Source: an uncultured bacterium (GTDB taxonomy: Bacteria > Omnitrophota > Gorgyraeia > Ghiorseimicrobiales > Ghiorseimicrobiaceae). From it: 64,000 nt of DNA. The DNA lies in assembly GCA_913009335.1 (NCBI GenBank), contig CAJVXN010000004.1, positions 2,349 to 66,348 of the forward strand, in the 5' to 3' direction. Position 1 is the first letter of the stretch, and the number at the start of each line of letters is the position of its first letter. Of this stretch, positions 20,391 through 38,420 are shown piece by piece. Position numbers and translations under genes: made by a program. The notes under the pieces are model-generated. The model was not told the origin of the DNA and searched no databases. It saw only the letters and a list, made by a program, of their open reading frames with translations.

Positions 20391-20558
20391 TCACTGGTAT
20401 CATACCTTACTCTTTAGAGCGAGGTATGAAAACGCCGTTCAGTATCAATCCTGAGCATACCTCGACCTTTAGGCCGAGGTTAATCGAATGGATTGATTTT
20501 TTATCTCTATTTTATTTTAACACCTAAGGGTAATTTTGCAATGCTAAATGTATTATTT

Positions 20559-23369
20559 TCACCTGCTGTTTTTAATATTTTTAAATGCCTTCTTGAGATA
20601 CTGCCCAGTATAAGAAACCCTATTTCCAGCAATTTCTTCCGGTGTGCCGGCAGCAACAACTTTACCCCCATTGTCTCCCCCATCAGGGCCTAAGTCAATA
20701 ATATAATCAGCGCTCGCCAACACGTCAAGATTATGTTCTATCACAACTACTGTATTGCCCCGCTCAACAAGTTTATCCAGGACTTTAAGTAATTTATCCA
20801 CATCAGCAAAATGTAAACCGGTAGTAGGTTCATCTAAAATATAAAAAGTATTACCTGTTGCGCGTTTACTTAATTCAGAGGTAAGCTTTATTCTCTGGGC
20901 CTCGCCTCCGGAAAGAGTAGTTGCCGGCTGTCCTAATTGAATATACCCTAAACCTACATCAATTAATGTCTGCAGAATGCTTTTTATCCGCGGTATATTC
21001 GCAAATAAGACACAGGCTTCCTCAACAGACATCTCTAAACAATCGCTTATTGATTTTCCTTTATACTCTACTCTTCGCGTCTGCTCATTGAAACGTTTCC
21101 CCTTGCATAACCCACAGGTTACATAAACATCAGATAAAAAGTGCATCTCTATTTTTTTTATCCCGTCACCACGGCACTCCTCGCACCTTCCACCTTTAAC
21201 ATTAAAACTAAACCTCCCCGGTTTATACCCTCTGATACGTGCCTCGGGCAAGCGGCTAAATATTTGCCTGATAAGACTAAAAACTCCCGTATATGTAGCT
21301 GGATTTGACCGCGGAGTTCTACCGATTGGCGACTGATCAATTTCAATCACCTTATCTATAAATTCTACACCTTTTATCCTATCGAACTCACCAGGCTTTA
21401 TCTTGGACTTATAAATCTTCTGCTTTAGCGCCTTAAATAAAATTTCGTCTATTAAAGTAGATTTTCCAGATCCGGAAACTCCGCTAACACAGCTAAAAAC
21501 ACCCAACGGTATAGAAATATCAATATTTTTTAAATTATGCTGCCTGCATCCAAATAATTCCAGATGTTTCCCCTTTTTTATGCTGCGACGCTTTTTCGGT
21601 ACATAAACTGACAAATCTCCTCTTAAATATTTAGCTGTAAGGGAAACGCGACTCTTTAGTAAATCTCCGATTTTTCCTTTAAAAACTATTTTCCCTCCAA
21701 ATCTTCCCGCCCCGGGCCCTAAATCAATGATATGATCACTTTCTCTTATAGTCGCCTCATCATGCTCAACAACAATAAGAGTATTACCCAAGTCGCGCAA
21801 AGACTTTAACGTTGAAAGGAGCCTACAATTATCCTTCTGATGCAGGCCTATGCTCGGCTCATCTAAAACATAGACTACGCCCGTAAGACCTGAACCAACC
21901 TGCGTCGCCAATCTTATCCTCTGGGATTCGCCCCCTGAAAGTGTTGCGCTCTTGCGTCCTAAAGTCAAATAGTCAAGACCTACATTTATACAAAAATCTA
22001 AACGTTGATTTATTTCTTTTAAAATATCCTTCGCGATCAACTGCTTCTCTGTTGAAAAACTAAGCTTGCCGAAAAAGCTCTTTGCGCAGATTAAAGACAT
22101 TTCTGTTATAGCATGAATAGACTTACCAGATATCCTAACAAACAAACTTTCTTTTTTTAGACGGCTACCTAAACATTGCGGACACGGCAGGACTGACATA
22201 AATTTAGAAATCTCATTCTTAAGATAGTCGCTATCGGTTTGATTAAATAATCTTTCTAGATGCGGCAAGATTCCTTCAAACGGTTTATTCCATATCACTT
22301 CATCAGACCCGTAAATTATTGCATTTTGTATTTTATTACTCAGGTTTTTAAAAGGTGTATGCAGACTAAACCCTAATCTATTCGCAAGCTGACGAAGTAA
22401 CATGCGATAATACATCAAATAACCCCTGCCGCCCTTTTTCCAGGGAGCTATTGCTCCCTCAACAATTGGTTTATCGCGGTCAGGAATAACAATATCCAAA
22501 TCAAATTCCATTTTTGTGCCTAATCCGTTACAGGCAGAACAAGCACCATAGGGAGAGTTAAAAGAAAAAATTCTTGGCTCAACCTCTCCCAAGCTTATCC
22601 CGCAATCCGGGCATCCGTAGAGCTCACTAAAAAGCATCTCCCTATTATCATCTAAGACAATTATCACCACTCCTTTACCTGCCTTTAATGCCGTCTCAAT
22701 CGAATCCGTAATTCTTCTTTTATTGACATCATTAACACTAAGCCTATCAACAACCACTTCAATCTTATGTATTTTATATCTATCCAGTTTAATCGGTTTA
22801 TCCAACTCGCACGTTTTACCGTCAACGCGGGCGCGCGTAAAACCCTCTTTCTGCATTAGGCCAAAAATTTTAGCATACTGGCCCTTTTTTCCTCTTACAA
22901 TAGGAGCTAATATTTCAATTTTTGCACCTCGAGGTAATTTCATGATAAGATTTACGATTTCTTGCGGGCTTTGTCTTTTTATAACCTTGCCGCATTTATA
23001 ACAATGAGGCGTACCTGCCTTAGCAAAAAGAAGCCGTAAATAATCATAGATCTCTGTTTGGGTCCCCACCGTAGAACGAGGATTTCCGCCTGCGGTTCTT
23101 TGCTCAATTGAAATTGCCGGAGATAATCCCTCGATACACTCAACATCCGGTTTATCAAGCCGTTCTAAAAACTGACGCGCATAACTAGAAAGGCTTTCCA
23201 CGTAACGACGTTGCCCCTCAGCATAAATCGTATCAAAAGCAAGGCTTGATTTACCAGATCCGGAGAGACCGGTTACAACAACCAGCTTATTGCGGGGAAT
23301 CTTTAAACTTATATTCTTTAAATTGTGGACTTTTGCGCCACGGATATTAATACACTGTTCTTTACTCAT
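20559..23369 (-). CDS. uvrA: Excinuclease ABC subunit A
   Basis: 936 aa. Two ABC modules ([12 protein letters not shown] and [10 protein letters not shown]), zinc fingers and LSGGE signatures. Confidence 0.95.
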
Positions 23370-23407
23370 ATTAAATGAAGTTAATGTATAAATACAAACT
23401 CGGTAGG

Positions 23408-24277
23408 CTACTTGATACCTTTTACTTCAACGGATGTATGTCCATACTGCTGATACCTGTTAGTTTTAACCTTTACATCGCAAGGATTACAATGACCAAA
23501 ATTTGAACAGTCTCTAAATTTATTTTCGATTTGAAAATCCGGACTTAAAATATGCCCTATCGGATTTAATCTTTCATAAATATCGGCATGACAGCGAAAA
23601 ACACTCCCCTCACTATCTATCAAAAATTCCGTTGTCTTACATTGTACTTTCTTTCTGAATTTTTTATCACAGACGCCACTATACCTATAGGTTCCATATA
23701 ATTTCTTTTTATATTCGCCAAGAAACTCTTTCATGCGAAAATCTATTCCCTCTTTGCGTGCCTTACTTTGCGCCTCAGACATTATTTTTTCATATCCGGG
23801 TCGCATTACCCCCCATATACCAATACTGAAATTTGCCTTTAATAATTTTGAAGTTTTATGAATAGTTTCGTCTAAATCCATTTGCTCGGGATGGTAACTT
23901 ACGCGAATAGAAGCATAAGGAGCATCCCGCCTTAGTCTCTCAGGGTCAACCTTACTTTTAAATTCATCAATATCGAATCGTAAATTAGTTAATATTTCAA
24001 TATACAAATCTGGTTTTATATTATTTATTATGTATATGAAATCAGGATGTAAGCTAGGCTCTCCGCCTTGAAGAGTTATCGGTAAATCCTCTCGAGAAAT
24101 AATACGATTTAGACCACGGACCCAATCTTTTCCGGAGATATTCTTTCTTTTTATAATACCCTGCTCAAAGTGATTAATACAATAATGACATTTAAGATTA
24201 CAGGCAAAAGTTAAAAATACGCCAATATAATTATAATCCTCTGGAACTTGGACAGGTTTAGTAATATTGGTTTCCAT
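23408..24277 (-). CDS. Radical SAM enzyme with a Cys-rich (SPASM/twitch-like) C-terminal region
   Basis: CNLKCHYC plus LQGGEPSLHP. Seven C-terminal cysteines including CSNFGHCNPC. Confidence 0.75.
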   Translation of the reverse strand: METNITKPVQVPEDYNYIGVFLTFACNLKCHYCINHFEQGIIKRKNISGKDWVRGLNRIISREDLPITLQGGEPSLHPDFIYIINNIKPDLYIEILTNLRFDIDEFKSKVDPERLRRDAPYASIRVSYHPEQMDLDETIHKTSKLLKANFSIGIWGVMRPGYEKIMSEAQSKARKEGIDFRMKEFLGEYKKKLYGTYRYSGVCDKKFRKKVQCKTTEFLIDSEGSVFRCHADIYERLNPIGHILSPDFQIENKFRDCSNFGHCNPCDVKVKTNRYQQYGHTSVEVKGIK

Positions 24278-24299
24278 TTTTATTGAACCTCATTAGAAA

Positions 24300-24839
24300 T
24301 TAATTAAGCTCTGTTTTTTTATTTAAAAGCCGCCGCTTGAAAAATGCTAGAATCTTTGCCATCCATAATACTATAGATCCATAAATAAAATATTTATTGT
24401 CTTTCAAAATTACCTGATTGGTTTCAATAAGCCTCACAAATCTGCGATTAATTATTTCTTCTGCGCTATAGCGCTTTAAGATTTCATCTAAGGAAAGGCC
24501 CTCTCTGGCCTCGAATAGCTCGCGAACAATCCTTATTCTGCGGGCCGTCTCCCCTAAATTTATAAAGTGAAAATAGCAATACCCTAGCGCAGCATATGTC
24601 AAAAGATTTATCAAGATATCGGCAATAAAATCTTTAAGCAAACCGGAATATGCTGAAAAAATATAAAATTCTAAGGCAAATAAACTAATAACTCCCGCAA
24701 AAAAACCTAAGAATATAGAATTTAATAAGCCTATCTTCGGCAGGCATCGGGAAGTTCCAACCTGCAACAATATGTTTACTAGCAAGCTGACCATCAGAAA
24801 GATAATATTTAAATAATCAGGGTTCATTAGCAACCTCAA
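24300..24839 (-). CDS. Hypothetical membrane protein, paralog of 24836-25363
   Basis: Four predicted TM segments. The soluble C-terminal tail is similar to that of the upstream paralog. Confidence 0.4.
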   Translation of the reverse strand: MRLLMNPDYLNIIFLMVSLLVNILLQVGTSRCLPKIGLLNSIFLGFFAGVISLFALEFYIFSAYSGLLKDFIADILINLLTYAALGYCYFHFINLGETARRIRIVRELFEAREGLSLDEILKRYSAEEIINRRFVRLIETNQVILKDNKYFIYGSIVLWMAKILAFFKRRLLNKKTELN

Positions 24840-25363
24840 CCGCCCTTAGGAGCATTTAGCAATTTGCGATAAAATATAAATATATTTGCCAACAAAACTC
24901 CTTTAGGAGTTATTCGATATATCCCCTTATCGAGAAAAAGCATTTTATCGCGAAGTAGATCATCAATCCGCGGCCTTACTAGAAAATCATTCGTCATAAT
25001 CTTCTCTATTTTCTCTTTGGTCAAACCGGATGAGGCGGCTTTAGAAATATACAAAACTATCAGTAGTGACGGACTATCTACTTCTATGGCCGAATATGAA
25101 ACAATATAAGCTAGGACTAATGCGCCATAGGAGAAAGAAATAAGCAAATATTCAGAAAATCCCTGAGGCAAACTAAGACCTAGAAATGATACGGAAGAAT
25201 ATATTCTAGAGAAAAAAATACCGGCTATTAGAACACCAAAAAATATTTTTAGTAATCCTATAGTATGATTTTTTTTAGGCAAAGATACTCGCCAAATAAT
25301 AAAGTGAATTATAAACGCTAAAATAAATAGAAAAATGACATAAACTAGTTTATTCATAAACAA
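24836..25363 (-). CDS. Hypothetical membrane protein, a tandem paralog
   Basis: The C-terminus FLVRPRIDDLLRDKMLFLDKGIYRITPKGVLLANIFIFYRKLL aligns with VRLIETNQVILKDNKYFIYGSIVLWMAKILAFFKRRLL of the neighbor. The two genes overlap by 4 bp. Confidence 0.4.
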   Translation of the reverse strand: MFMNKLVYVIFLFILAFIIHFIIWRVSLPKKNHTIGLLKIFFGVLIAGIFFSRIYSSVSFLGLSLPQGFSEYLLISFSYGALVLAYIVSYSAIEVDSPSLLIVLYISKAASSGLTKEKIEKIMTNDFLVRPRIDDLLRDKMLFLDKGIYRITPKGVLLANIFIFYRKLLNAPKGG

Positions 25364-25394
25364 AAATACTATTGGCTATAGATTACTAAATATG

Positions 25395-26498
25395 TTAGAT
25401 AAAATTCTTATGTAAAACCTGTTTGTCTTTTGGCATCGTAAAGCTTGCGCCGCTAGACTTCAAATCCCATAAAAATTCATTTACTTTATGCTGGAGGCAT
25501 AGCGTGCCGCACATAATCTGTGCATTAAATTTATCAGAAGCAATAAAATTCAAAACATCCCAATAGCGCTCATCCTGCCATATTTCCTTAAAAGATTTTT
25601 CTGCGATATTACCTATATGATATTTTTTATATTTACTGTTAAATAACATTCCGCAAGGTGCGACCAACCCCGAACCGGAAAACTGCATAATAAAGGCAGG
25701 GGCATAACATTGTTTGTATTTACGCTTCCCTCCGCTTAAAATCTTAGACCACTTAACCGCAACTTTATATTCGTGCGTTGAATATTTCTCTGCCTCTTTT
25801 AAAATATCTATACATGACTGGTATTTTAAATAATCCACTCTCAGGCTTCCAACTTCATCATCACTGCAATGTTTAAAAATAAGATAATCTACTCCTAGAT
25901 CTTTACCGAGTTTTGCCAGGGGGATAACCTGATCACTAAAACGGGGGAGAAAAACCATCTGTAGCCCTATAGTAACCCCCAGCAACTTATCCTTTTTAAT
26001 GTTGACACACTGACGAATAATTTTCACTACCCTCTCAAAGCATTTATCATCGGTCCCGTGTATATCAGCATATCTTTTTGCACCTGCCGCCGAAATATTA
26101 AATCGTATATAGGTTAAAACGGATAATATCTCTTCAAGCCTATCTTCCTTTAATAAATACCCATTAGTTCCAACAGCCATATCTAGGCCATTGGCCTTGC
26201 CCCTCAAAACAGCATCGTAAAAATAAGGAGAACAGGTGCTTTCTCCGTCACTAACAAAACTTACTCCTTTAACGCCTATATCGGCTGCGTCATCTAAAAA
26301 CCTAAATATCACATCTTTAGTTATCTTCTTTTCATCGTTTGCCTGTAAGGCACCATAGCAATAAACGCATCTATAGGTACACCTACGGGTTAAAGCGCAA
26401 TCAATAGTAATAGGCGCTATTTTTTTTCCTTCTAGCCATGCCTTAAGGCGCTCCTCATGGTAAGCCAACTTTTGCCCATCGAGAACTAATTCTTTCAT
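25395..26498 (-). CDS. Radical SAM/SPASM-domain enzyme, paralog of 29350-30420
   Basis: CTYRCVYC cluster. C-terminal SPASM-like region with GNIAEKSFKEIW and CGTLC. The N-terminus aligns with the 29350 protein. Confidence 0.75.
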   Translation of the reverse strand: MKELVLDGQKLAYHEERLKAWLEGKKIAPITIDCALTRRCTYRCVYCYGALQANDEKKITKDVIFRFLDDAADIGVKGVSFVSDGESTCSPYFYDAVLRGKANGLDMAVGTNGYLLKEDRLEEILSVLTYIRFNISAAGAKRYADIHGTDDKCFERVVKIIRQCVNIKKDKLLGVTIGLQMVFLPRFSDQVIPLAKLGKDLGVDYLIFKHCSDDEVGSLRVDYLKYQSCIDILKEAEKYSTHEYKVAVKWSKILSGGKRKYKQCYAPAFIMQFSGSGLVAPCGMLFNSKYKKYHIGNIAEKSFKEIWQDERYWDVLNFIASDKFNAQIMCGTLCLQHKVNEFLWDLKSSGASFTMPKDKQVLHKNFI

Positions 26499-26523
26499 CT
26501 GAAATTATTTTTATTGAATAAAT

Positions 26524-27303
26524 CTATGCATTATTTCTTCTGGTTTGCGTTAGTGAATCACGGCTAAATCGTCTTTTACCGTTTTTATTTTTATGAAAAT
26601 AAAAATCTTTGACCAATCGTAAATACCCCCTTACAACCTGGTATAGAGAAGGAAAACTAACAGCTTTAGATACTCCCTCTTTTCTTAAACCCAGCTTATA
26701 GGGAACCTCGGCAAAAAGATAACCTTTTTTTACCGATCTTATCAAAATATCCGTCTGGAAAAAGAAACCATTACTTCTATAATCCAAATCATCTAAAATA
26801 GACTTACGATACAGAACCGTCCCGTTAGTATAGTTAAAATTAACCAGAAATGTCGTATTAATAATGAAACGGTATACAAACGAAAGCATGTTCCTAAAAA
26901 GAAGTCTTGTCTCTCTATTAAATATAAAAGGAATAACAATATCTACATGTTCCAATAAATTATAATAGCGGAAAATTTCCCGGGGATCATTTTCATTATC
27001 TCCGGGCAGCATAACAACAATATCTCCTGTTGCGCCCGCAACTCCATCCCAGAAAGAAGCGCCAATACCTAACGGTTTATCATGCCGGATAATAGAAACT
27101 TTTCCTGGGTTTTCGTTTATTTTTTGCTCAATCAAAATTCGAGTATTATCCGAACTACCATCATCTACTACAATAAGCTCCCCTGCTATATTAAAAGTAT
27201 TAAAATCTTTCAATACATCGTTGATTGCATTGGATATATTTGATTCTTCATTAAGCGCTGGCATAATAACGCTTAATTTATTTTCATCCATCTTCTTATT
27301 CAT
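26524..27303 (-). CDS. GT2 glycosyltransferase, Dpm1/ArnC-like polyprenyl-phosphate sugar synthase type
   Basis: LSVIMPALNEESNIS and VVDDGSSDNT GT-A/DxD architecture. No TM tail. Confidence 0.75.
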   Translation of the reverse strand: MNKKMDENKLSVIMPALNEESNISNAINDVLKDFNTFNIAGELIVVDDGSSDNTRILIEQKINENPGKVSIIRHDKPLGIGASFWDGVAGATGDIVVMLPGDNENDPREIFRYYNLLEHVDIVIPFIFNRETRLLFRNMLSFVYRFIINTTFLVNFNYTNGTVLYRKSILDDLDYRSNGFFFQTDILIRSVKKGYLFAEVPYKLGLRKEGVSKAVSFPSLYQVVRGYLRLVKDFYFHKNKNGKRRFSRDSLTQTRRNNA

Positions 27304-28337
27304 AAAATTCGCTTAACTGCCTTAATAATATCTTCTGAATCCAGATAAAATTCTTTTTCTAAAACAGGACTACTGGGAGTAGGCGTGTCAGCAAGACTAA
27401 TTACCTGGACATCTGATTTTAAATAAGGCCTTAATTTATTATGCATGCGCCCCAGAAGTATCTCGCCTATACCGCCACTAGCCCAACCTAAATCAGCAAA
27501 AACAAGCCTCCCTGTTTTCTTAACAGATTCAATAACAATTTCTTCGTCAAAAGGATTAAGTGATCTGGGATCAATAATTTCTATATCTATATCTTCCCGT
27601 TTTAATTTTTCCGCAGCCTTCATCGCTTCCTGTACCATTAATGATACGGCAACTATTGTTACATCTTTACCGGCCTTACGAATAAAACCTTTTCCAATAG
27701 GTATAAGATATTCTTTGGCAGGGACATAATCTTTAATATCATAAAGCCACCTATGCTCGATAAAAATAACGGGATTATTATCGGCTATACTTGCAAGTAA
27801 TAATCCTTTTGCATCATAAGCGCTTGACGGCATAACTACTTTAATTCCCGGCATATGCAAAAACAATGCATGTAGAGCCTGAGAATGCTGCGCTGAAGAA
27901 CCCCAGCCTCTACCGATAATGGAACGTATAACCATAGGGACAGCTACCCTACCGGAAGACATATAACATATTTTTGCTGCATGATTAAGTATCTGATCAA
28001 ATGAAAGAAGCATGAAATCCATTCGCATGTGTACTAAAATAGGCCTCATTCCACAAACTGCTGCTCCGACGCAAAAGCCGGTTAATCCGTTCTCTGATAT
28101 CGGTGTATCCATTACCCTACCGGGAAAATCCTTATGCAAATTAAGTGTTGATCCAAAAACACCTCCGGGATCATCAACACCTTCACCCATCAGGAAAACA
28201 CGGGGATCTCTCTTAAAAGCCTGAAAAGAGGCCTCTCTTAAGGCCTGTCTAAATTCAAGCGTCCTTTTATTCTTATCTAGAGAAGGAAAGGCTAAATTTT
28301 TAACGGCATTATCAACCGCTACTTTTGTCCAGGGCAT
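27300..28337 (-). CDS. Thiamine-diphosphate-dependent 2-oxoacid dehydrogenase E1 component, beta subunit (transketolase-like Pyr and C-terminal domains)
   Basis: 345 aa. E1-beta fold (FLMGEGVDDPGGVFGST...). Overlaps the alpha subunit gene. Confidence 0.8.
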   Translation of the reverse strand: MPWTKVAVDNAVKNLAFPSLDKNKRTLEFRQALREASFQAFKRDPRVFLMGEGVDDPGGVFGSTLNLHKDFPGRVMDTPISENGLTGFCVGAAVCGMRPILVHMRMDFMLLSFDQILNHAAKICYMSSGRVAVPMVIRSIIGRGWGSSAQHSQALHALFLHMPGIKVVMPSSAYDAKGLLLASIADNNPVIFIEHRWLYDIKDYVPAKEYLIPIGKGFIRKAGKDVTIVAVSLMVQEAMKAAEKLKREDIDIEIIDPRSLNPFDEEIVIESVKKTGRLVFADLGWASGGIGEILLGRMHNKLRPYLKSDVQVISLADTPTPSSPVLEKEFYLDSEDIIKAVKRIL

Positions 28338-29320
28338 GAGCTTTCTGTGTAATAAACGTTAGAATAAAGATCCTTACTATTAGGAAAATCGCTATTTTTT
28401 GCAAATCTTACAGCACTATCTATTTCTTCCTCAATCTTAGAACGAATTATATTTAATTTTTCTCTTGTTGCTATTTTATTTTTTAAAATATAATTCTCTA
28501 TTCTCTTGACAGGACATCGCTTCATCCAAGACTCAAGCTCAACGAGCGGACGGCATCCTTTATCAAAATCACAATCCGGTCCTACATGAGCTTTCCAGCG
28601 ATAGGTTCTACATTCAAGAATAAACGGCCCTGAGCCATGACGTATTTTTTTAATTAGTTTAGATGCTTTATCTATCATACTAATTGCATCGTTACCATCA
28701 CAACGTACACCCTTTATCCCGAATGCCTCTCCTCTCTTGTAAATGTTATCTAAAGGCTGCCTTGCCGAGAGCGGAGAATTTGTGGCATAAAAATTATTCT
28801 CGCAGACAAACAAAATAGGTAGTTTTTTTAGGGCGGCAAAGTTTAGGCTCTCATAAAAAACACCCTGCTCTACAGCACCGTCTCCGAAAAAAACAACCGC
28901 GATATTTTTGGTTTTTTTAAGTTTTAAACTTAAAGCAGCTCCTGTTGCCAACGGTATCCCCCCGCCGACAATAGCAGACGTAGCAAAGATCCCGCGCTCA
29001 GGACTTACCAGATGCATAGACCCACCCTTACCACTGCAACAACCTGTATCTTTACCATAAAGCTCCGCCATTATTGATTGAAGCTCTAATCCTTTAGCGA
29101 TACAATGCCCATGAGACCGATGATTACTAAAAACAATGTCTTCTTTTTTTAAATAATAGCAAACACTACTTGCTATTGCTTCCTGACCGATACACAGATG
29201 AACCGGCGTCTTAATCTCCTGCTCAGGATAGAGCATGACAATCCTCTCTTCAAAGAGGCGTATCTTCTGCATTATAAAATAGACATTTAGTAAATCGCTA
29301 TTTTTAATTTTTCCTGCCAC
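28319..29320 (-). CDS. Thiamine-diphosphate-dependent 2-oxoacid dehydrogenase E1 component, alpha subunit
   Basis: 333 aa. TPP-binding motif GDGAVEQGVFYESLNFAALKKLPILFVCENNFYA. Confidence 0.8.
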   Translation of the reverse strand: MAGKIKNSDLLNVYFIMQKIRLFEERIVMLYPEQEIKTPVHLCIGQEAIASSVCYYLKKEDIVFSNHRSHGHCIAKGLELQSIMAELYGKDTGCCSGKGGSMHLVSPERGIFATSAIVGGGIPLATGAALSLKLKKTKNIAVVFFGDGAVEQGVFYESLNFAALKKLPILFVCENNFYATNSPLSARQPLDNIYKRGEAFGIKGVRCDGNDAISMIDKASKLIKKIRHGSGPFILECRTYRWKAHVGPDCDFDKGCRPLVELESWMKRCPVKRIENYILKNKIATREKLNIIRSKIEEEIDSAVRFAKNSDFPNSKDLYSNVYYTESSCPGQK

Positions 29321-29349
29321 GAAAAACTCCTTAGAACTTAACGGCTATA

Positions 29350-30420
29350 TTATATAAAATTAACATGCGCTCCCGGATTTTTTAATTCCCAGAGGTAACT
29401 ATTGATCTTATCCAAGCGGCAGACATCTCTGCAACGAGAAGTATCTAATTTTAAAGCTGCTACTCTTATAATTTCTCTTCTTCGTCTACCCCCGATTATA
29501 TTATTAAAATCAGTTCGATAAATATTACCGGAGCAAAATTCTTTTTTCCCTAAAAAAGTACTACAGGCATAGACATCCCCGCAAGCACTAATATATGCCC
29601 AAAACGGCAGACCGAGACAATGCTTATAATCTTTATCACTATCCAATCTTTGCATTGTCTGAGATCTAAAAATAATCCTAAATTTATCACTCTGAATTTT
29701 ATTTAATTTAGCACTCATAACAGAATAATTCTTATATTCCAAAACAGGTTTAATATGTGTAATGCTTAAAGGGTGCTGCGAATATGGCTTGATTGTTAAA
29801 TAATCTACTCCGATATCTTTTAGTAATTTCGCTAATATAAAAACTTCCTTGATATTTTCCTTAAGAAGTAATAATTGTACGCCTATTGTAACGGCTAGCT
29901 TATATCTATTTTTAATTTTTACCGCAGCTTCTAAATTCTGCAATACTTCGCTAAAGTCATTTTTTCCGGTATTGTGAATCTTCGAATAAGTGCTACTGCG
30001 CCCCGCATTCAAACTTACCCTAACCCAACTTAAAGACTTTAATATTTCTTTAGATAGATCACGTTTTAACAAGACACCGTTAGTAGTAACTGCGACGTCG
30101 ATTCCGCACCCTTTTGTATAACTGATAATTTTAGCAATATCTTTATGCAATAGAGGCTCGCCTTCCCCGGCGTACATAATACTCTTAACGCCTAAGATAC
30201 CAGCTTGCTTAACCGCAGACTTTAATACTTTTTCCTCTAAAAATTTGGGTTTATAGTCCAAATAGTCAAGCGCGCAAAATATGCATCTATGGTTGCAAGT
30301 TCCCGAAGGAGCAATCTCCAAATATATCGGGCAAATTATTTTTCCCTTCAACCAATCACTTACTCTATCTACATGCAGCATTAACTTATGACTATCTATT
30401 CTAAAATTATTCTTCATCAC
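29350..30420 (-). CDS. Radical SAM/SPASM-domain enzyme, paralog of 25395-26498
   Basis: CNHRCIFC cluster, YAGEGEPLL, and a C-terminal SPASM-like CSGNIYRTDFNNI...CRDVCRLDKINSYLWEL. Confidence 0.75.
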   Translation of the reverse strand: MMKNNFRIDSHKLMLHVDRVSDWLKGKIICPIYLEIAPSGTCNHRCIFCALDYLDYKPKFLEEKVLKSAVKQAGILGVKSIMYAGEGEPLLHKDIAKIISYTKGCGIDVAVTTNGVLLKRDLSKEILKSLSWVRVSLNAGRSSTYSKIHNTGKNDFSEVLQNLEAAVKIKNRYKLAVTIGVQLLLLKENIKEVFILAKLLKDIGVDYLTIKPYSQHPLSITHIKPVLEYKNYSVMSAKLNKIQSDKFRIIFRSQTMQRLDSDKDYKHCLGLPFWAYISACGDVYACSTFLGKKEFCSGNIYRTDFNNIIGGRRRREIIRVAALKLDTSRCRDVCRLDKINSYLWELKNPGAHVNFI

Positions 30421-31358
30421 CGCTTTTCCTTAACAGGTAATAAATCAACAACAGCATCTCTAATCTCACTAGGACTAATAAGCTCCATGCATTGCTTCTT
30501 CTGCTTGCAGGTAGAATTAAGGCAAGGAACACATTTATAATTAACTCTTGGAATAATCTTGACTCCCCGCTTATAAAGGAATACTTCCTTAGACGATGTC
30601 GGGCCGAAAAGAACAATAATTTTTTTCTTAAGAGCTACCGCCAAATGCATGCCCAAGCTATCATTAGTTATAATAAGGCGGCATGACTTAATCCAATCTA
30701 TATATTCATATAGATTATTTAAGCCTTTTTGCCAGGAAATAGCATACCCCTTCTTTAAACTCCGCTCTAAGTCTTTCCAGTACTTTTTGGGCCATGATTT
30801 ATTAGGCCATTTATCGCCAACAGCCCAATTAAACCCGATATCATATTTTACAGCAGATTTAGACTTATACCCAAGGATATACTCGTCTCTTTCTTTCCAT
30901 TTTTTATCGATCATCGAAGCTAATGCATCTTGCCAAAATTTAAAGTTCTCTTTTTTCTCCTGAAGATCCAAACATAAACTTAAAACTTTTTCTGCCCCAT
31001 CATAAGCCTGAGCAATACCTTTATCGGCATCAAATCGAAAACCAAATCTTCTCCAGGCATTAATAGAATCTGAAAATGCGCAAATTCCCGGCCCTTTTTC
31101 CAGGTTAATAACCGTATCAAAGCGCTCCCGCTGTAATTGCAAAACTGACTCCAGATTAAAAACTAAAATACGCTGAATAAACGGATTGTTTTCCAGGAGA
31201 GCATAAGCCTTTTCATCTACAAGCCAGCTAACTTTATCGGACTTAAAATAATTCAAAATTACCGTTGTCCGTAAAACATCTCCCAGGCTCGTTGTTGCGC
31301 CTATGTCTCCATCCAGTGTCTCTGAATAGCCTAACTTTATAATCAAAACCTTTGCCAT
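30417..31358 (-). CDS. Glycosyltransferase family 9 (heptosyltransferase-like)
   Basis: 313 aa. C-terminal GT-B motif SLGMHLAVALKKKIIVLFGPTS is typical of ADP-heptose:LPS heptosyltransferases. Confidence 0.75.
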   Translation of the reverse strand: MAKVLIIKLGYSETLDGDIGATTSLGDVLRTTVILNYFKSDKVSWLVDEKAYALLENNPFIQRILVFNLESVLQLQRERFDTVINLEKGPGICAFSDSINAWRRFGFRFDADKGIAQAYDGAEKVLSLCLDLQEKKENFKFWQDALASMIDKKWKERDEYILGYKSKSAVKYDIGFNWAVGDKWPNKSWPKKYWKDLERSLKKGYAISWQKGLNNLYEYIDWIKSCRLIITNDSLGMHLAVALKKKIIVLFGPTSSKEVFLYKRGVKIIPRVNYKCVPCLNSTCKQKKQCMELISPSEIRDAVVDLLPVKEKR

Positions 31359-31400
31359 GCCTCACCTCGATTCTAAAAATACTACCTCGCATAAACCCGA

Positions 31401-33353
31401 CTAATCAATTTTAATATTCCCTAAGATTACCCGACCAAGATTATCTATTGTTTTAGCATCCAAAACTGGCAATACTGCTCTATTCGCTAATGCAAACAAC
31501 CCTACTCTTATCCGATATTCTCCGCTCTTTAAACCAGAAGGAAGGGAAATATAATAATGTTCTCTGATAACTTGTTGTTCTGGCATATCTTTAGACGGAT
31601 AAACTCCATAAGCAAATGTATGTGTTTTCGTAAAACTCAGATTACCATTTGCATCTAAAAAATGTATAAAAAAACCTAATTCTCCGGGCCCTATTTTTAT
31701 AGATTCCCAATAATAAGCAAAATGCAAAATCCTATCACCATCCATATTCATCTCATCAACATCATACCCTAAAAAAGTAAGCTGGCCCGCTATATTAACA
31801 TGCATGGGATTATCAATATCTTCCTCGCTTGCCATTTCAACCAATTTATGTCCGGAAGGATAATTTTTTTTAAATAATATAATATCATCAACAGCCCCCA
31901 TAACCTTCCAGCCCCCATCCTCTAAAAAAGAACGAATATTATCCGGGGCTTGCGTCGGGAAGAAAGAATTACGCATCAGGGGCTCATTAAAATCTATTAA
32001 AGCATATTCTAAGCCTGAAGGGGGCTGATAAGCTACATTCGTATACATTCTAAATCCTGTTGAAACCAAATGCATTGACGATAAATCATGTCGATGAGCC
32101 AGTTGTGGTAAAAACTGAAAAGTTGAAATAACAGACGCCTCCCGGGGAATCATCTCAATCAACTTTTTCTTTTGCCGCGCTAAATCATTAATCTGATATC
32201 TCTTTATATAGTTGAGGAAATAAAACTGCGGCGCTTTTAAAGAAATACTAAAGCTTGCGCAGATTACAACAAATACAAAAAGCAGTAAAATGCGATATTT
32301 ATAAACTCTATTATAATTCAACAGCCTCTTAAATGCAAATACTACAGATACGAATATAAAAGGGATAATTAAGGCAGTGTAGTGATAATAAATTTTTGTA
32401 TGTGTCGCAACCGATGATAACAAATTTTGCAAAAAAACAGGGAAAGCAATCAATAAAACCGCGGGGCTTAAAAACCCGATAAAACCTGCGGGTGAAAATA
32501 AATCATATATATAAAATAGCTTTTCTGCAGTAAAGGCATACCTAATAGTTAATACAGGATGCATAATTATTGTTTTTGCCATATCAAAAATATTATCCCC
32601 AAGGTGCCGATAGTACGCAGTAAACATAAATCCTTCATTATACAATTTTGCATCCTTGGCAAAATAAGGTATGATAATTTTTACTGCCGTAAAAAACCAA
32701 ACAACGCCTAATATTAACGGTGTCAAAATCCACCTTTTTGATCTTTTTCGAATAAAGGCGTAGATACCAAACATAAAAACAACAAAACTGACATTTTCCT
32801 TACAACTCAAGGCCAATAAGATAAATATTAAAAATTTACTGAATTTCTCCTTCTCAAAATAATATAACGCAAAAAAAAGGAAGAATATCACATATATTTC
32901 AAAATGTGATTCAAAAAGATTCATAAAACCTACCGGTGGATATAATAGATAGACCAGACTTATCATCAAAGCGAAAACTCTATTTAATTTCGATTTAGCC
33001 AAGAGATACAAAGGATACGCCGCCAGGCCTAAGAATAAACTTTGTAAAAACAGAATTGCTAATGGATGCTGAAAAATCATATAGACGGGAATAAGCAGGA
33101 GAATGATCAAATAAATGTGAGCGCCGAAAATGCTTTGCTCGAGAAAAGGATAATAAAATATTTTACCATGAATGCTATTCCAAAGTACGGATATATCACT
33201 GGCAAAATCCCAATCATAATAACCAAAAGAATAATATTTCAAGAAAGAAAGATAGCTGAAAATAATAGCGTACAAACTTATAAATACCCAGATTATTTTA
33301 TCGGCAAACCTCTCACAAAACTTATCAACTATCTTCACGAATTTCTTCTCCAT
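31401..33353 (-). CDS. Large polytopic membrane protein, DUF2079-like (putative GT-C fold glycosyltransferase) with a C-terminal soluble domain
   Basis: 650 aa, about 12 TM helices and an early YYDWDF motif. The soluble C-terminal region is about 230 aa. Confidence 0.55.
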   Translation of the reverse strand: MEKKFVKIVDKFCERFADKIIWVFISLYAIIFSYLSFLKYYSFGYYDWDFASDISVLWNSIHGKIFYYPFLEQSIFGAHIYLIILLLIPVYMIFQHPLAILFLQSLFLGLAAYPLYLLAKSKLNRVFALMISLVYLLYPPVGFMNLFESHFEIYVIFFLFFALYYFEKEKFSKFLIFILLALSCKENVSFVVFMFGIYAFIRKRSKRWILTPLILGVVWFFTAVKIIIPYFAKDAKLYNEGFMFTAYYRHLGDNIFDMAKTIIMHPVLTIRYAFTAEKLFYIYDLFSPAGFIGFLSPAVLLIAFPVFLQNLLSSVATHTKIYYHYTALIIPFIFVSVVFAFKRLLNYNRVYKYRILLLFVFVVICASFSISLKAPQFYFLNYIKRYQINDLARQKKKLIEMIPREASVISTFQFLPQLAHRHDLSSMHLVSTGFRMYTNVAYQPPSGLEYALIDFNEPLMRNSFFPTQAPDNIRSFLEDGGWKVMGAVDDIILFKKNYPSGHKLVEMASEEDIDNPMHVNIAGQLTFLGYDVDEMNMDGDRILHFAYYWESIKIGPGELGFFIHFLDANGNLSFTKTHTFAYGVYPSKDMPEQQVIREHYYISLPSGLKSGEYRIRVGLFALANRAVLPVLDAKTIDNLGRVILGNIKID

Positions 33354-35587
33354 CTAAATACCCAATAGCTAAATATTGTAGCCGAACCTAAAAGACCCGC
33401 CAAAAGACAAAACAGGCCAAATTTATAAAATCTTGGATCATATACAAAACGCACTATATGGCTGCCCTTATCAATAATGACGGATTTAAAAGCAATATTA
33501 GTCTTATATACCTTCCCCTCGTTTCCGTCAATAAATACCCGCCAGCCCTTATCAAAACCATCACTATAATAAAGAAAGCTATCTTCATCCGCATAAACAT
33601 CTATAACTATTTCATTAGGATTAAACGTTGTTACCTCAATCTTGCCGCCTGGGGCACCTCTACTATCTAAACTACCAAAATCTCTTTTTAAGTGAGCGTA
33701 TTTAAACGGTATGGCTTCTTCAATAAATACGACGTCCTTTAAGGTATTTGCATCCATCCCCTGTAACTCTTCAATTATTTTATTAGGAGAGGTAACTATA
33801 GCACTACGGACAAGACGGAGTTTAGGAACAGATATACCCATAATAATATCTTTGACCTCACCTGAGACCCGTGAGCTGTTTATAAATGTATAAAAATCTT
33901 TCATTTCATAAAAATGCGTTGACCTCCGGGGAATCCTAATGCTATAGGCATTAAATATCTTACGCATTGCCGGGCCAAAGGCATAGGGATACGGTTTCGG
34001 AAAAAACTCTGGTAAACGGTAATCTTCATAAGCTATCTTACTGTTCGAAGGGAAAGCCGTATAATCGCGAGGCATAGTTGTAAATTTATAAATGGTATGA
34101 TTAACCATAAGCAAATCAATAAGGATAAAAAATATTATTACAAAATATTTAATATTTATATTAATCCGCGGCCTTGTTAATAGCGGGAAGATAATAACAG
34201 TCCCAACAACGAATATAAGAATATTGAGCGCTGAACGAAAATAGATAGTGAAAAATGTATGGATCGACCCCTTAATAAAAAACATAGAATTGCTGGCAGA
34301 AAGAGAGCATATTTTAAGCAAAGGCAAAAAGATGTTAAAAAGATGGTTATTTATCAATAAAGACAAAAGACAGATGAAACTGACAGAAAAAATAATCGGC
34401 ATTTTATAAAATCCGATTTTAGACGTATGCAGCCAATCCATTACTACATCCGCACCAATACAGGTAAAAAAAACTAAGCAAAAAATATAAAACACGCCAA
34501 AGGTATGCATATTCCTGATTATGGAAAAGAAGGGGAAAAACTTAGTGAATAATTGATATACAGGATATCCATCTCCCAACATCAATAATTCAATAATGAT
34601 AGCTGTAAATAGAAAACCTAATTTATATTTGTGCCGGGAAAAACATAATCCAATAATAGCGAATAACAAAGGGATTAAACCGATATATAAGAAAGATTCG
34701 GACATAGAATACCAGTTAGAAAAATGCAACATAAAAGAATAAGGAACTAATAAACTGAAGAAATCAGTAGGAAGTGAATATGCCCCCGAAGGAATTTCAA
34801 AAATTCGTACTACTGGAATAACATTATGCGTATATGTTAAATAGACAGGCAGTAATCTTATCGTCAAAAGAATAAATATAAAAAATCCTCCAAGGCAAAC
34901 CTTATAATTCTTAAGAAACATAGTAAATTTTGGCGCGGGCAGTGCGCGGGATAAAAAGATGCACATTAAAAGAACGCTAACAGAAGAAATAATGAACATT
35001 GCATGATAGGAAGGAAGCGCTACTCCTAAGAGAAAAACCGTACTCAAAAAAAATTTTGGTTTTTGCTGTTCTAAGAATTTCAGGATAGACAATAAAATCA
35101 GCGGCATAAGATAAAATGCTAAAATGAAGGCATGCTGCTTTAAATATGAAACAGCCAAAGATGAAAAAGATAGACTTATAAAAGCGATAAAAGCGCTAAT
35201 TTTATATTTTGCCACATGCCTAAAAAATAAATAGCCACCGCATATAAAAATTATATACCGCAACAATAAATCATAGTGATAAAGAACAAGGGTATCAATT
35301 TTTACGAATTTTCCTATAAAGATTAAAAAAAGTGTTGTTATATCTAAAAGATGCAATATGTTAATATTTAAAAAAAATATCTCTCCGCAGTTCATAAAAG
35401 GATTCCAAAGAGGCAAGAAACCCTGATGTAAGCAATCTACAAAATATGAAAATATCCCATACCAAATAATACTATCATGACTAACCATTAACTTGTTAGT
35501 CACCCATAACTGCCGTTGTGCAATAATCAATACAACAATAACAGCGACAACTCCAAAGACTTCCTTAAGTTTTTTATTAATTATCAT
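33335..35587 (-). CDS. YfhO-family polytopic membrane protein (GT-C-like glycosyltransferase)
   Basis: 750 aa, more than 12 TM helices. The C-terminal beta-rich domain ending GWRVFIDGNEGKVYKTNIAFKSVIIDKGSHIVRFVYDP matches the YfhO C-terminal signature. Confidence 0.65.
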   Translation of the reverse strand: MIINKKLKEVFGVVAVIVVLIIAQRQLWVTNKLMVSHDSIIWYGIFSYFVDCLHQGFLPLWNPFMNCGEIFFLNINILHLLDITTLFLIFIGKFVKIDTLVLYHYDLLLRYIIFICGGYLFFRHVAKYKISAFIAFISLSFSSLAVSYLKQHAFILAFYLMPLILLSILKFLEQQKPKFFLSTVFLLGVALPSYHAMFIISSVSVLLMCIFLSRALPAPKFTMFLKNYKVCLGGFFIFILLTIRLLPVYLTYTHNVIPVVRIFEIPSGAYSLPTDFFSLLVPYSFMLHFSNWYSMSESFLYIGLIPLLFAIIGLCFSRHKYKLGFLFTAIIIELLMLGDGYPVYQLFTKFFPFFSIIRNMHTFGVFYIFCLVFFTCIGADVVMDWLHTSKIGFYKMPIIFSVSFICLLSLLINNHLFNIFLPLLKICSLSASNSMFFIKGSIHTFFTIYFRSALNILIFVVGTVIIFPLLTRPRININIKYFVIIFFILIDLLMVNHTIYKFTTMPRDYTAFPSNSKIAYEDYRLPEFFPKPYPYAFGPAMRKIFNAYSIRIPRRSTHFYEMKDFYTFINSSRVSGEVKDIIMGISVPKLRLVRSAIVTSPNKIIEELQGMDANTLKDVVFIEEAIPFKYAHLKRDFGSLDSRGAPGGKIEVTTFNPNEIVIDVYADEDSFLYYSDGFDKGWRVFIDGNEGKVYKTNIAFKSVIIDKGSHIVRFVYDPRFYKFGLFCLLAGLLGSATIFSYWVFRWRRNS

Positions 35588-35589
35588 GG

Positions 35590-37050
35590 CTAAATGAATA
35601 CTCTAACTAAGGATGCTAGTAACCTAAATGCCAGTCGAGCAAGGCTGAACCATTCACCGGGTCTTAAATACCACCGGGGAGGAAGATAAAACCATCCGGC
35701 CGGACCTATTCTTTTAATCAAAAGTCTGAAAACTCTATTTGGCCTTAAAGAAAAAAATAAGTTAGCCTTAATTACATCATTTCTGAGCGTTTTTTCATCG
35801 CATGTTACAGGCACATAAGGTAATTTTGCTTCTGTGGAGGAATCCTGAACCAAGCTCGCGCAGGCATTTAAATTAGTCCATCCTTTTTCTATGAAAAGTC
35901 TGCCTTCTTCTTTTGCGATTTCGTACAATCTGGTGCCCGGATAAGGGGTAGCATTATTAAACCTGACATAATCCAAATCTAACTCTTTGGCTAATCTATA
36001 AGCGCTCCATCTTTCCTGCCTGGTCTCAGTAGGCAAGCCAAAGATAAAAGTACCCGATACGCCAAATCCGTGTTTTTTTGCCAGTTTTACCGCATCAATA
36101 TTTTGCTGGACAGTCTCTTTTTTATTCAATATAACCATTAATCGTTCCGATGCTGTCTCGAGTCCAAAATTGATTAATCTAAACCCGGCTTTTTTCAATA
36201 AAACAAGCACTTCATCATTAACAGCATCCGCTCTAGTCTGACAATCAAAAGTTGCCTTTTCATAAAATCTTTTTTTGATCATGCTTTCACATAACTCTTT
36301 AATCCTAGATTTATTAACCGTAAAATTATCATCAACAAAATTAATATGTGTCTGCTGGTATTTATCCAACAAAATGGTAATTCCATCGATTACGGTTTGT
36401 GTAGGTATATAGCGAAATTCCTGACCTGAAATACTCCTTTGACTGCAAAATATGCAATCATAAGGGCATCCGCGGGAACTGGACATAAAACCAAAATTAT
36501 ATTTATCTATATGCCGCTCAAATAAATGGTAAGGAAAAGGCGGAATTTTGCTTAAATCCGGAAGGCGCGCCGGAGGATTATGAACCACTTTTCCATTTTG
36601 CTTAAACGATATTCCGTTTATATTTGAATAATCACCTTTATTCTTAATCGCTTCGTAGAGTTCGGCAATAATCTCTTCACCTTCGCTCCTTACTAAAAAG
36701 TCGACGTCATTGCTTCCTAAAACTTCATTCGGTAAAACTGTAGGATGAATACCACCCAGAATAACCTTGGCCTCAGGATACATTTTTTTAACTAGCCCGG
36801 ATATCTCAAGACTCCTGCTAGCGCAGGCTGTAAGAGTAGAAATACCGACAACATAAGGTGCGGAAGATAATTTGAAAACCTCGCTTAATACTTTTTCTGA
36901 AATAGGCGTTATATGCTCATCGATAATTTCAACCTTCTCATTCTGACCCAATAGATAACCAGCTAAATAACCCATGCCAATCGGTACACTCAGGGGTACG
37001 TATTTCTCAAAAATACCAAATTTAGTTGATCTTGGATTTATTAAAATCAT
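35590..37050 (-). CDS. B12-binding-domain radical SAM enzyme (class B)
   Basis: 486 aa. N-terminal cobalamin-binding Rossmann region followed by SSSRGCPYDCIFCSQ (CxxxCxxC). Confidence 0.8.
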   Translation of the reverse strand: MILINPRSTKFGIFEKYVPLSVPIGMGYLAGYLLGQNEKVEIIDEHITPISEKVLSEVFKLSSAPYVVGISTLTACASRSLEISGLVKKMYPEAKVILGGIHPTVLPNEVLGSNDVDFLVRSEGEEIIAELYEAIKNKGDYSNINGISFKQNGKVVHNPPARLPDLSKIPPFPYHLFERHIDKYNFGFMSSSRGCPYDCIFCSQRSISGQEFRYIPTQTVIDGITILLDKYQQTHINFVDDNFTVNKSRIKELCESMIKKRFYEKATFDCQTRADAVNDEVLVLLKKAGFRLINFGLETASERLMVILNKKETVQQNIDAVKLAKKHGFGVSGTFIFGLPTETRQERWSAYRLAKELDLDYVRFNNATPYPGTRLYEIAKEEGRLFIEKGWTNLNACASLVQDSSTEAKLPYVPVTCDEKTLRNDVIKANLFFSLRPNRVFRLLIKRIGPAGWFYLPPRWYLRPGEWFSLARLAFRLLASLVRVFI

Positions 37051-37151
37051 AATAGCTAAAAAATATTATTATTCTCAAAACACAAATATGAATTTTTGCA
37101 AAATGAATCTTACCGGCCTAAACCTTGAGGTTTTTCCATGGTGAAATAAAG

Positions 37152-37190
37152 CCCCTGATCAGATAAACTTACAGGGGCTTTATTTAGTTC
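37152..37190 (-). terminator. Rho-independent terminator downstream of the Lys-rich small gene
   Basis: Stem AAAGCCCCTG/CAGGGGCTTT (10 bp), followed on the minus strand by TTTATTT. Confidence 0.5.
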
Positions 37191-37215
37191 CTGCAAATAA
37201 CAGAAAAACAAAGAC

Positions 37216-38412: not shown

Positions 38413-38420
38413 AATAAGAG

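Follow-up and report, generated by a model that had tools for sequence, protein, structure and literature searches.

A conserved gene cassette of two paralogous radical SAM enzymes, an E1-type thiamine-diphosphate enzyme and a glycosyltransferase in an uncultured Omnitrophota bacterium, with a probable role in envelope-sugar modification

What does a gene pair for the alpha and beta subunits of an E1-type thiamine-diphosphate (ThDP) enzyme do between two related radical S-adenosylmethionine (rSAM) genes, beside a family 2 glycosyltransferase (GT2) gene and without an E2 partner? The question is raised by positions 25395-30420 of a 64,000-nucleotide stretch (the window) of contig CAJVXN010000004.1, assembly GCA_913009335.1, from an uncultured bacterium of the Omnitrophota. 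The five genes concerned are, in transcription order on the minus strand, rSAM-A, E1 alpha, E1 beta, GT2 and rSAM-B. The balance of the evidence leans towards their being the core of a conserved, horizontally spread cassette for a modified envelope-glycan sugar in anoxic settings. The E1 pair is, judged by its sequence and gene context, most likely a part of this sugar-modification cassette and not a pyruvate dehydrogenase (PDH).

Relatives of rSAM-B were sought in one genome per species and were found in at least 567 species-level genomes, nearly all of them from uncultured anaerobes. The protein is 67-78% identical across Omnitrophota, Nitrospirota, Desulfobacterota, Planctomycetota including anammox genera, Elusimicrobiota, Patescibacteria, Latescibacterota and one metagenome-assembled genome of the Nanoarchaeia. 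The best 80 loci (handles beginning with L) were taken with 10-kb flanks, and their open reading frames (ORFs) were classified by BLASTP against the proteins of the window and a few reference neighbours. The usual gene order is rSAM-A, a two-subunit ThDP enzyme, GT2 and rSAM-B. A cytidylyltransferase-like gene and an HldE-like kinase/nucleotidyltransferase gene may precede rSAM-A; two small membrane proteins, and rSAM-C (a third non-B12 rSAM enzyme), a B12-binding rSAM enzyme (B12-rSAM) or a CbiR-like TIM-barrel protein, may follow rSAM-B. Synteny with the window over most or all of the 12 genes of the run in which the core lies is seen in Omnitrophota loci, among them L007, L009, L010 and L015. 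Recurrent neighbours are HldE-like genes (36 of 80 loci), GmhA-like SIS genes (29 of 80), family 9 glycosyltransferase (GT9) genes (16 of 80, directly upstream of rSAM-A), short-chain dehydrogenase/reductase (SDR) and DegT genes, Wzx and Wzt. No curated family describes the cassette and no paper describing it was found in the literature; it appears to be undescribed so far. Adjoining the HldE-like gene, a protein of about 300-320 aa with a weak match to Pfam ArgZ-like_C_2nd as its sole Pfam match was observed in three loci (L001:2979-3929, L087:4803-5768, L089:5001-5906); similar ORFs occur in 19 of the 80 loci.

Cassette composition was counted in the 61 loci whose sequence reaches 4.5 kb or more upstream of rSAM-B. 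A ThDP enzyme of some type lies next to rSAM-B in 55 of them, namely an E1 alpha/beta pair in 36, a split transketolase (TK)-like pair (295 aa + 164 aa) in 18 and both types in one, leaving six with neither. rSAM-A is found near rSAM-B in 45 of the 61 loci and GT2 in 47. The E1-type and TK-type loci are scattered among each other on a neighbour-joining tree of rSAM-B, and sister loci that differ in ThDP type (L042 versus L034; L067 versus L031, L043 and L049; L039 versus L017, L019 and L020) indicate that E1 and split TK have repeatedly replaced each other. This exchange suggests that the two are functionally equivalent within the cassette. A locus of the Thermodesulfovibrionales (L069:1-11101) contains three rSAM-B-like genes, two tandem copies (41% identity) and an orthologue, together with a split-TK pair and an E1 pair; it may represent a doubled or diversified cassette.

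The E1 pair is tied to its neighbours in other ways. E1 beta and GT2 are fused as a single ORF in L032 (7926-9791) and L085 (8106-9974), and a search with the L085 fusion recovered at least 13 protein clusters (P0241-P0253) of 594-615 aa that carry Transket_pyr, Transketolase_C and Glycos_transf_2; the public label on these fusions of about 610 aa is 'pyruvate dehydrogenase complex E1 component subunit beta'. In a reciprocal test, three of three E1 beta orthologues, picked solely for their position on long contigs, were located in the cassette, with E1 alpha upstream and an rSAM-B orthologue (65-67% identity) downstream. Scores against curated PDH models remained below cut-off: 332.1 bits for E1 alpha against TIGR03182 (PDH_E1_alph_y; cut-off 393.85), and 310.7 and 306.1 bits for E1 beta against NF006667 (cut-off 321) and NF008854 (cut-off 454). 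The original prediction had noted that no lipoyl-E2 partner is present in the 64 kb, and this was borne out. Among all 53 ORFs of at least 150 aa in the window, no Pfam match to 2-oxoacid_dh, Biotin_lipoyl, E3_binding or Pyr_redox was obtained, and a six-frame scan of the window found neither DHR..DG nor E[ST]DKA. The flanks of 86 related loci likewise contained no ORF bearing DHR..DG, the catalytic motif of E2. Because of the exchange with TK, the fusion to GT2, the reciprocal test and the sub-cut-off PDH scores without an E2 motif, the E1 pair is regarded as an integral, exchangeable component of a conserved sugar-modification cassette. Reading the orphan E1 of the earlier description as a dehydrogenase that lacks its partner is not supported, since the same slot takes a split TK, E1 beta is fused to GT2 in several lineages and all three E1 beta orthologues looked up lie in the cassette. 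E1 alpha/beta carboligases that branch keto-sugars without an E2 already form an established class (PMC4425429, PMC12247030), so the missing E2 is expected rather than anomalous. The context typical of alpha-KADH2 sugar carboligases, an E1 pair in a sugar-biosynthesis cluster without E2 and E3, is the context found here.

The two rSAM enzymes on either side are related over their whole length. rSAM-B residues 6-367 align with rSAM-A residues 8-356 at 29% identity (pairwise BLASTP, E 2e-45), and the alignment takes in the N-terminal extension and a common C-terminal H-x-N-F-I tail. This similarity is far above the match of either protein to solved rSAM structures (best E 1e-4 to 9e-9), and comparison of both with rSAM-C (E 0.03-0.3) detected no paralogy beyond the core. 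Identity to the window protein is 67-78% among B orthologues and 53-69% among A orthologues, that between A and B 27-32%. The shared N-termini and the ancient duplication within one operon that the original prediction had proposed were thus confirmed by an end-to-end alignment that exceeds the generic rSAM core and by two separate orthologous groups. From these comparisons, rSAM-A and rSAM-B are an old duplication inside one operon, with both copies strongly constrained; the proposal of two radical steps on related substrates is a reasonable reading.

When 25 sequences from the two orthologous groups were aligned, the residues invariant across both included CX3CX2C (C42, C46 and C49 in rSAM-A) and four C-terminal cysteines (C264, C282, C330 and C334 in B; C268, C286, C330 and C334 in A), which in both families have the spacing C-x17-C...C-x3-C. 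Of the motifs named earlier, CxxxCxxC was recovered in both proteins and GEGEP in rSAM-A; the glycine-rich SAM motif of rSAM-B is an invariant SDGEST and not GGEP. Additional invariant cysteines of rSAM-B are C34, C89 and C211, the last inside a KHCSDDE motif. Both proteins belong to the radical SAM superfamily (PF04055: rSAM-A 71.3 bits, rSAM-B 57.9 bits, cut-off 29.5) and pass the Pfam threshold for the SPASM domain (PF13186: 35.5 bits for B, 25.2 bits for A, cut-off 21.5). The SPASM-type C-termini described earlier therefore stand at the level of the Pfam domain, but four cysteines are conserved in both families instead of the seven of the signature CX9-15GX4C...CX2CX5CX3C...C, which binds two auxiliary clusters. 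Such a C-terminus fits a one-cluster, twitch-like truncated SPASM domain. No curated NCBIfam rSAM equivalog was reached among BlsE, MoaA, PqqE, anSME, W-cofactor maturase, viperin and BtrN/AprD4. The DesII family TIGR04426 (cut-off 450) gave 29.8 bits for rSAM-B and 44.8 bits for the L001 orthologue of rSAM-A, and the highest of the other rSAM models, TIGR04317, gave 82.7 and 98.7 bits (cut-off 380). Publicly, relatives of A and B are named merely 'radical SAM protein'.

The closest solved relatives of rSAM-A by sequence are BlsE, MoaA and DesII. Searches of the PDB with the rSAM-B sequence, single or as a profile, gave marginal matches only (PqqE 1e-4, DesII 3e-3), and a comparison of folds was therefore needed. 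AlphaFold (AF2) models of the two proteins, built from a mixed A + B alignment, are both rSAM folds (pLDDT 86 for rSAM-A and 84.6 for rSAM-B). The top Foldseek PDB match was DesII for rSAM-A (E 5e-16, TMq 0.67-0.70) and for rSAM-B (E 6e-16); over both, TMq was 0.65-0.70 at 15-18% identity, so that the resemblance to the DesII family is confined to the fold. SuiB, SkfB and BlsE ranked next, followed by anSME, viperin, MoaA and BtrN. DesII converts TDP-4-amino-4,6-dideoxyglucose to a 3-keto-sugar by deamination and TDP-quinovose to a 3-keto-sugar by dehydrogenation (PMC11434129). By analogy, a DesII-type 3-keto product would fit exactly the kind of acceptor that a ThDP carboligase needs.

The occurrence of rSAM-A is linked to that of other sugar genes. 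An SDR gene for nucleoside diphosphate sugars is present in 9 of 16 loci without rSAM-A and in 5 of 45 loci with it (Fisher p = 6.8e-4). In the rSAM-A-less loci this SDR, of the dehydratase/epimerase family, is often accompanied by DegT aminotransferases; it is directly upstream of E1 alpha in L087, and in three loci (L003, L044, L064) rSAM-B and a TK pair occur together with two SDRs and two DegT. The layout of these three loci follows the logic of desosamine biosynthesis (DesIV, DesI, DesII, DesV). rSAM-A may offer a radical route in place of the SDR and aminotransferase steps. rSAM-B would be a near-universal second radical step, in which either the final keto acceptor is formed or the branched product is processed.

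The GT2 enzyme points to a lipid carrier. Its top NCBIfam match is ArnC (4.5e-14, 52 bits, below the cut-off of 529) and its closest solved relatives are ArnC (2.4e-12) and the P. furiosus Dol-P-Man synthase (2.3e-11), over residues 7-232. The GT-A catalytic domain is accordingly closest to ArnC/DPMS, as in the polyprenyl-phosphate GT2 class; of the C-terminal transmembrane (TM) helices of that class none was found, no TM segment being predicted in the protein. Members of the class without a TM helix exist, for example DPM1.

As to substrate, keto intermediate, two-carbon (C2) transfer, order of steps and lipid carrier, we infer the following route, in which the modification is most likely a two-carbon sugar branch. 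The substrate would be a nucleotide-activated sugar, possibly a heptose, given that the cassette is accompanied by HldE-like, GmhA-like and GT9 genes. A DesII-fold rSAM enzyme would turn it into a keto-sugar, rSAM-A covering the job given elsewhere to an SDR dehydratase and an aminotransferase, and rSAM-B adding a second radical step. E1 alpha/beta, without E2 and E3, would decarboxylate pyruvate and add the C2 unit to the sugar carbonyl as a ThDP carboligase; in other genomes the split TK would perform an equivalent C2 step. The ArnC/DPM1-like GT2, sometimes fused to E1 beta, would load the sugar onto polyprenyl phosphate, and the DUF2079 and YfhO-type GT-C proteins and GT9 would place it on the envelope. 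YfhO-type proteins use polyprenyl-phosphate sugars in three-component glycosylation (PMC7389260), and a PMT_2-like protein lies beside the cassette in L001. More tentatively, and with rather less confidence than for the cassette itself, the locus may encode an oxygen-independent route to a C-branched, perhaps heptose-derived sugar, in which two DesII-fold rSAM enzymes stand in for dehydratase, aminotransferase and oxygenase and supply a carboligase, either an E2-free E1 or a split TK, to which a lipid-carrier glycosyltransferase is physically linked. Omnitrophota, Nitrospirota, Desulfobacterota, anammox Planctomycetota, some members of the candidate phyla radiation and some DPANN archaea would then share a new envelope sugar, and the reaction type of rSAM-B would be new for sugar rSAM enzymes.

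Several points weigh against this interpretation. Genuine E1s have active-site histidines and a beta C-terminal domain, and the E1 pair retains both; with all features of a catalytically competent E1, it leaves room for an E2 encoded elsewhere in the genome. Identity to DesII is low and the NCBIfam DesII model is far from reached (about 30 bits against 450); the next-best folds, SuiB and SkfB, are peptide-type rSAM enzymes, and peptide modification is the commoner activity among SPASM/twitch rSAM enzymes. The GT2 is without a TM helix, and the two small membrane proteins are unlike known flippases. The sampling of loci is anchored on rSAM-B, and some of the six loci without a ThDP enzyme have rSAM-A, GT2 and rSAM-B directly adjacent. 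The neighbour-joining tree carries no support values, and the Fisher test on the SDR genes treats loci as independent, ignoring shared ancestry. Lastly, HldE-like, GmhA-like, SDR, CbiR-like and KdsC/cytidylyltransferase genes were sought in the window and none was found, although all of these accompany the cassette elsewhere.

The ThDP enzyme might extend the sugar chain instead of branching it. An rSAM dehydrogenase would then supply an aldehyde, onto which a C2 unit is added in the manner of DXS or transketolase, giving a linear octulose or nonulose that is afterwards nucleotide-activated. The split TK subunits do match DXS models as well, and anSME is among the fold matches of rSAM-A and rSAM-B, anSME-type SPASM enzymes being known to form aldehydes. 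KdsC-type phosphatase/cytidylyltransferase fusions, which are typical of 8- and 9-carbon ulosonic sugars, lie beside the cassette in L005 and L006, with similar ORFs in 9 of the 80 loci. The E2-less E1 alpha/beta sugar enzymes known so far act on ring ketones, however (PMC12247030), and DesII, the best fold match, yields a ring 3-ketone. Chain extension is on this evidence rather unlikely, and a two-carbon branch is preferred.

A lower probability is given to the E1 pair being a true 2-oxoacid or acetoin dehydrogenase E1, with its E2 and E3 elsewhere or with another electron acceptor, that supplies acetyl units or reducing power. The matches of more than 300 bits to PDH E1 models would suit such a role, as would the retained ThDP motif and catalytic histidines and the public annotation as alpha-ketoacid dehydrogenase subunits ("alpha-ketoacid dehydrogenase subunit beta" for the E1 beta of the window). 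The closest solved relative of E1 alpha is human PDH E1 alpha (1.6e-51). E1 alpha has the ThDP motif GDGAVEQG...(26 aa)...ENN, that is GDG-X26-NN, within the expected GDG-X24-27-NN, and the active-site histidines of both subunits correspond, in alignments, to those of the human and G. stearothermophilus E1; motif and histidines do not discriminate because they are common to all alpha-KADH2 enzymes. Against a dehydrogenase stand the scores of both subunits below the curated equivalog cut-offs, the lack of E2/E3 in the window and of DHR..DG ORFs in the 86 locus flanks, the occupation of the same slot by a split TK whose subunits are without the TK C-terminal domain, the fusion of E1 beta to a glycosyltransferase and the confinement of the orthologues to the cassette.

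Equally improbable is a cassette that modifies a lipid, a polyprenyl-linked or a cofactor-like molecule, for example a hopanoid-type head group, with four rSAM enzymes acting at the membrane. The operon does contain four rSAM genes and two dedicated small membrane proteins. The top NCBIfam matches of its B12-rSAM are BchE and HpnJ, both far under cut-off, and lipid B12-rSAM families, and the GT2 weakly resembles HpnI- and HpnB-type enzymes. Nevertheless, the recurrent neighbours (HldE-like, GmhA-like SIS, SDR, DegT, GT9, Wzx, Wzt) are sugar-nucleotide genes, sugar nucleotides are also the substrates of the nearest rSAM folds, and the window showed no squalene or hopene genes. That rSAM-A and rSAM-B are maturases of a ribosomally synthesized and post-translationally modified peptide (RiPP), as the SPASM match and the presence of SuiB, SkfB, CteB and PqqE among the fold and sequence matches could suggest, is very improbable and was rejected, since overlapping genes and gaps of at most 42 bp leave no space for a precursor gene, there is no RiPP recognition element or peptide-binding N-terminal domain, just four auxiliary cysteines are conserved and the context is glycan biosynthesis in all loci.

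For the branched envelope sugar, which is the preferred reading, the operon of the window offers the following setting. The five ORFs of the core were confirmed on the minus strand and form part of a run of 12 genes from 37050 to 23408, in which adjacent genes overlap or lie at most 42 bp apart in the ORF map (Table 1). The run has four rSAM genes in all, one GT9 gene and two genes for GT-C-like candidate membrane proteins. A promoter and terminator scan of 20300-38600 returned fewer sites than shuffled sequence and is therefore uninformative. Homologues of the B12-rSAM are present in 39 of the 80 related loci and rSAM-C in 15. The DUF2079 protein is syntenic in L007, L009, L010 and L015, the YfhO-type protein in the Omnitrophota loci L009 and L010. 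The GT9 protein scores under cut-off against the heptosyltransferase I, II and III models.

Table 1. Genes of the 12-gene run in transcription order, with window positions
Feature	Position	Strand	Evidence and remarks
B12-binding radical SAM enzyme (B12-rSAM)	35590..37050	-	Pfam B12-binding 1.5e-15, Radical_SAM 5.5e-25; first of 12 genes
Polytopic membrane protein with YfhO-type C-terminus, GT-C-like glycosyltransferase candidate	33335..35587	-	Pfam YfhO 2.5e-9, residues 649-727; many predicted TM segments
DUF2079 polytopic membrane protein, GT-C-like candidate	31401..33353	-	Pfam DUF2079 1.5e-63
GT9 (heptosyltransferase-family) glycosyltransferase	30417..31358	-	Pfam Glyco_transf_9 3.3e-15; stop overlaps rSAM-A start by 4 bp
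rSAM-A, radical SAM enzyme with truncated SPASM (twitch-like) C-terminus, 356 aa	29350..30420	-	Pfam Radical_SAM 1.4e-19, SPASM 2.1e-5
E1 alpha-type ThDP subunit (alpha-KADH2 type)	28319..29320	-	Pfam E1_dh 3.8e-67
E1 beta-type subunit	27300..28337	-	Pfam Transket_pyr 4.1e-35, Transketolase_C 6.8e-31; overlaps E1 alpha by 19 bp, GT2 by 4 bp
GT2, polyprenyl-phosphate sugar synthase type, without TM helix	26524..27303	-	Pfam Glycos_transf_2 1.5e-21
rSAM-B, paralogue of rSAM-A, 367 aa	25395..26498	-	Pfam Radical_SAM 1.9e-15, SPASM 1.2e-8
Small membrane protein, 175 aa, about 3 N-terminal TM helices and a soluble tail of about 80 aa	24836..25363	-	TM prediction
Small membrane protein, 179 aa, same architecture as the preceding	24300..24839	-	TM prediction
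rSAM-C, third non-B12 radical SAM enzyme, 289 aa, Cys-rich C-terminus (C-x16-C...C-x5-C-x2-C)	23408..24277	-	Pfam Radical_SAM 2.7e-8

The two small membrane proteins are 25% identical over their full length (E 0.045) and always occur as a pair, each in 28 of the 80 loci. A role as ArnE/F-, GtrA- or GtcA-like flippases was considered and rejected, as no Pfam or NCBIfam match was obtained even at E 5 and the proteins have three TM helices with a soluble tail. The eukaryotic DPM1, which is tethered to the membrane by DPM2 and DPM3, is brought to mind by the combination of a TM-less GT2 with two small membrane proteins; one may speculate by this analogy that the pair are DPM2/DPM3-like tethers of soluble enzymes.

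Immediately upstream of the operon (37216-37467) is a gene for a very basic protein of 83 aa, in which a motif of about 35 aa (VAKVGI-x-[RK]E-x-GYLYFVDK-x-G-x-[VI]S-x-AKM-x-RG) occurs twice; the protein ends in the lysine-rich tail KKKKKKKR and has no Pfam match. Beyond it, a 426-aa ORF (38514-39794) joins an HPPK domain (folate) to a pantoate-beta-alanine ligase (PanC) domain; that two vitamin pathways meet in one protein is unusual. A lysine/arginine block follows at 39923-53228 (aminotransferase, dapB, dapA, dapF, lysA-like, argH, argG, argF-type ornithine carbamoyltransferase (OTCase), argD-like, argB, argJ, argC-like), and a type IV pilus or type II secretion system (T2SS)-like cluster (pilins, T2SSF, T2SSE, secretin, PilO, PilM) occupies 4868-14447. 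Since housekeeping blocks surround it, the cassette is considered chromosomal and not on an obvious mobile island. A second, separate glycosylation module is found at 55500-58444, where a 235-aa GT2 overlaps with its end a GT87-family GT-C protein (56197-57456); the next protein, of 332 aa, has a weak DUF7840 match. At 1370-4318, a radical SAM gene (3374-4318) precedes a Memo-AMMECR1 fusion (510 aa) on the same strand by a few hundred bases, which we take to be the AmmeMemoRadiSam trio with two members fused. Genes up to about 58 kb are nearly all on the minus strand, with a GC skew near -0.2; the skew is +0.07 at 58-60 kb, and this region of shift holds a plus-strand transposase in two ORFs, DUF772 (59414-60097) and DDE_Tnp_1_6 (60220-60855).

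In the databases, thousands of cassette proteins go under the names "pyruvate dehydrogenase E1 beta", "alpha-ketoacid dehydrogenase" or "radical SAM protein". Such labels distort the metabolic reconstruction of uncultured anaerobes, for instance by implying a PDH or acetoin pathway. If the proposed route is correct, ThDP-dependent sugar branching by alpha-KADH2 and split-TK enzymes would not be limited to actinomycete antibiotics and would be widespread, together with keto-sugar formation by rSAM enzymes, in the envelope biosynthesis of anaerobic "dark matter" phyla. With five genes that are very conserved in at least 567 species, the cassette is tractable for heterologous reconstitution and as a source of carboligases and rSAM sugar enzymes.

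Among known systems, three-component glycosylation combines a GT2 (CsbB, GtrB or ArnC) with GtcA, GtrA or ArnEF and a GT-C enzyme (YfhO or ArnT), and the cassette operon likewise pairs an ArnC/DPMS-like GT2 with YfhO-type and DUF2079 proteins (PMC7389260). It differs in its small membrane proteins, which match no GtrA, GtcA or ArnE/F and carry a soluble domain of about 80 aa, and in that radical and ThDP chemistry evidently reshapes the sugar, as in no known three-component system. DesII and BlsE are rSAM enzymes of sugar nucleotides, DesII being the best solved fold for both rSAM-A and rSAM-B; the cassette enzymes, at 15-18% identity, are set apart by an N-terminal D-x2-KL-x2-H...W segment of their own, the HxNFI tail and four conserved auxiliary cysteines. 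Split-gene transketolases have been proposed for hydroxyacetyl branching in miharamycin and amipurimycin (PMC12247030) and are, like the cassette TK, two-gene ThDP enzymes of a sugar pathway thought to use a keto-sugar; the cassette versions differ from those of Streptomyces in their size (295 aa + 164 aa), in being without the TK C-terminal domain and in their spread over many anaerobic phyla.

A close parallel, drawn by context and not by sequence, is with the E1-type pairs of sugar clusters without E2 and E3, namely AviB1/AviB2 (avilamycin), Pau11/Pau12 (paulomycin), AlmDI/DII (aldgamycin) and KbDH (kibdelomycin). AviB1/AviB2, Pau11/Pau12, the aldgamycin enzymes and KbDH-alpha/beta attach a pyruvate-derived C2 branch to a keto-sugar without E2, which for KbDH was tested in vitro (PMC4425429, PMC12247030). 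A 2025 review places alpha-KADH2 and TK enzymes mainly in actinomycete secondary metabolism, with all 13 candidate TKs coming from Streptomyces and none characterised (PMC12247030); the context of the cassette is therefore new. The known alpha-KADH2 carboligases belong to actinomycete antibiotic clusters and receive their keto-sugar from NAD-dependent dehydratases, and the avilamycin partner AviO2 is oxygen-dependent. The E1 pair of the cassette, in contrast, is located in envelope-glycan loci of uncultured anaerobes, has an rSAM gene on either side, can give way to a split TK and is coupled, or in some cases fused, to a GT2 of the polyprenyl-phosphate type. Among ThDP-dependent routes to branched sugars, the cassette is best regarded as a variant not seen before.

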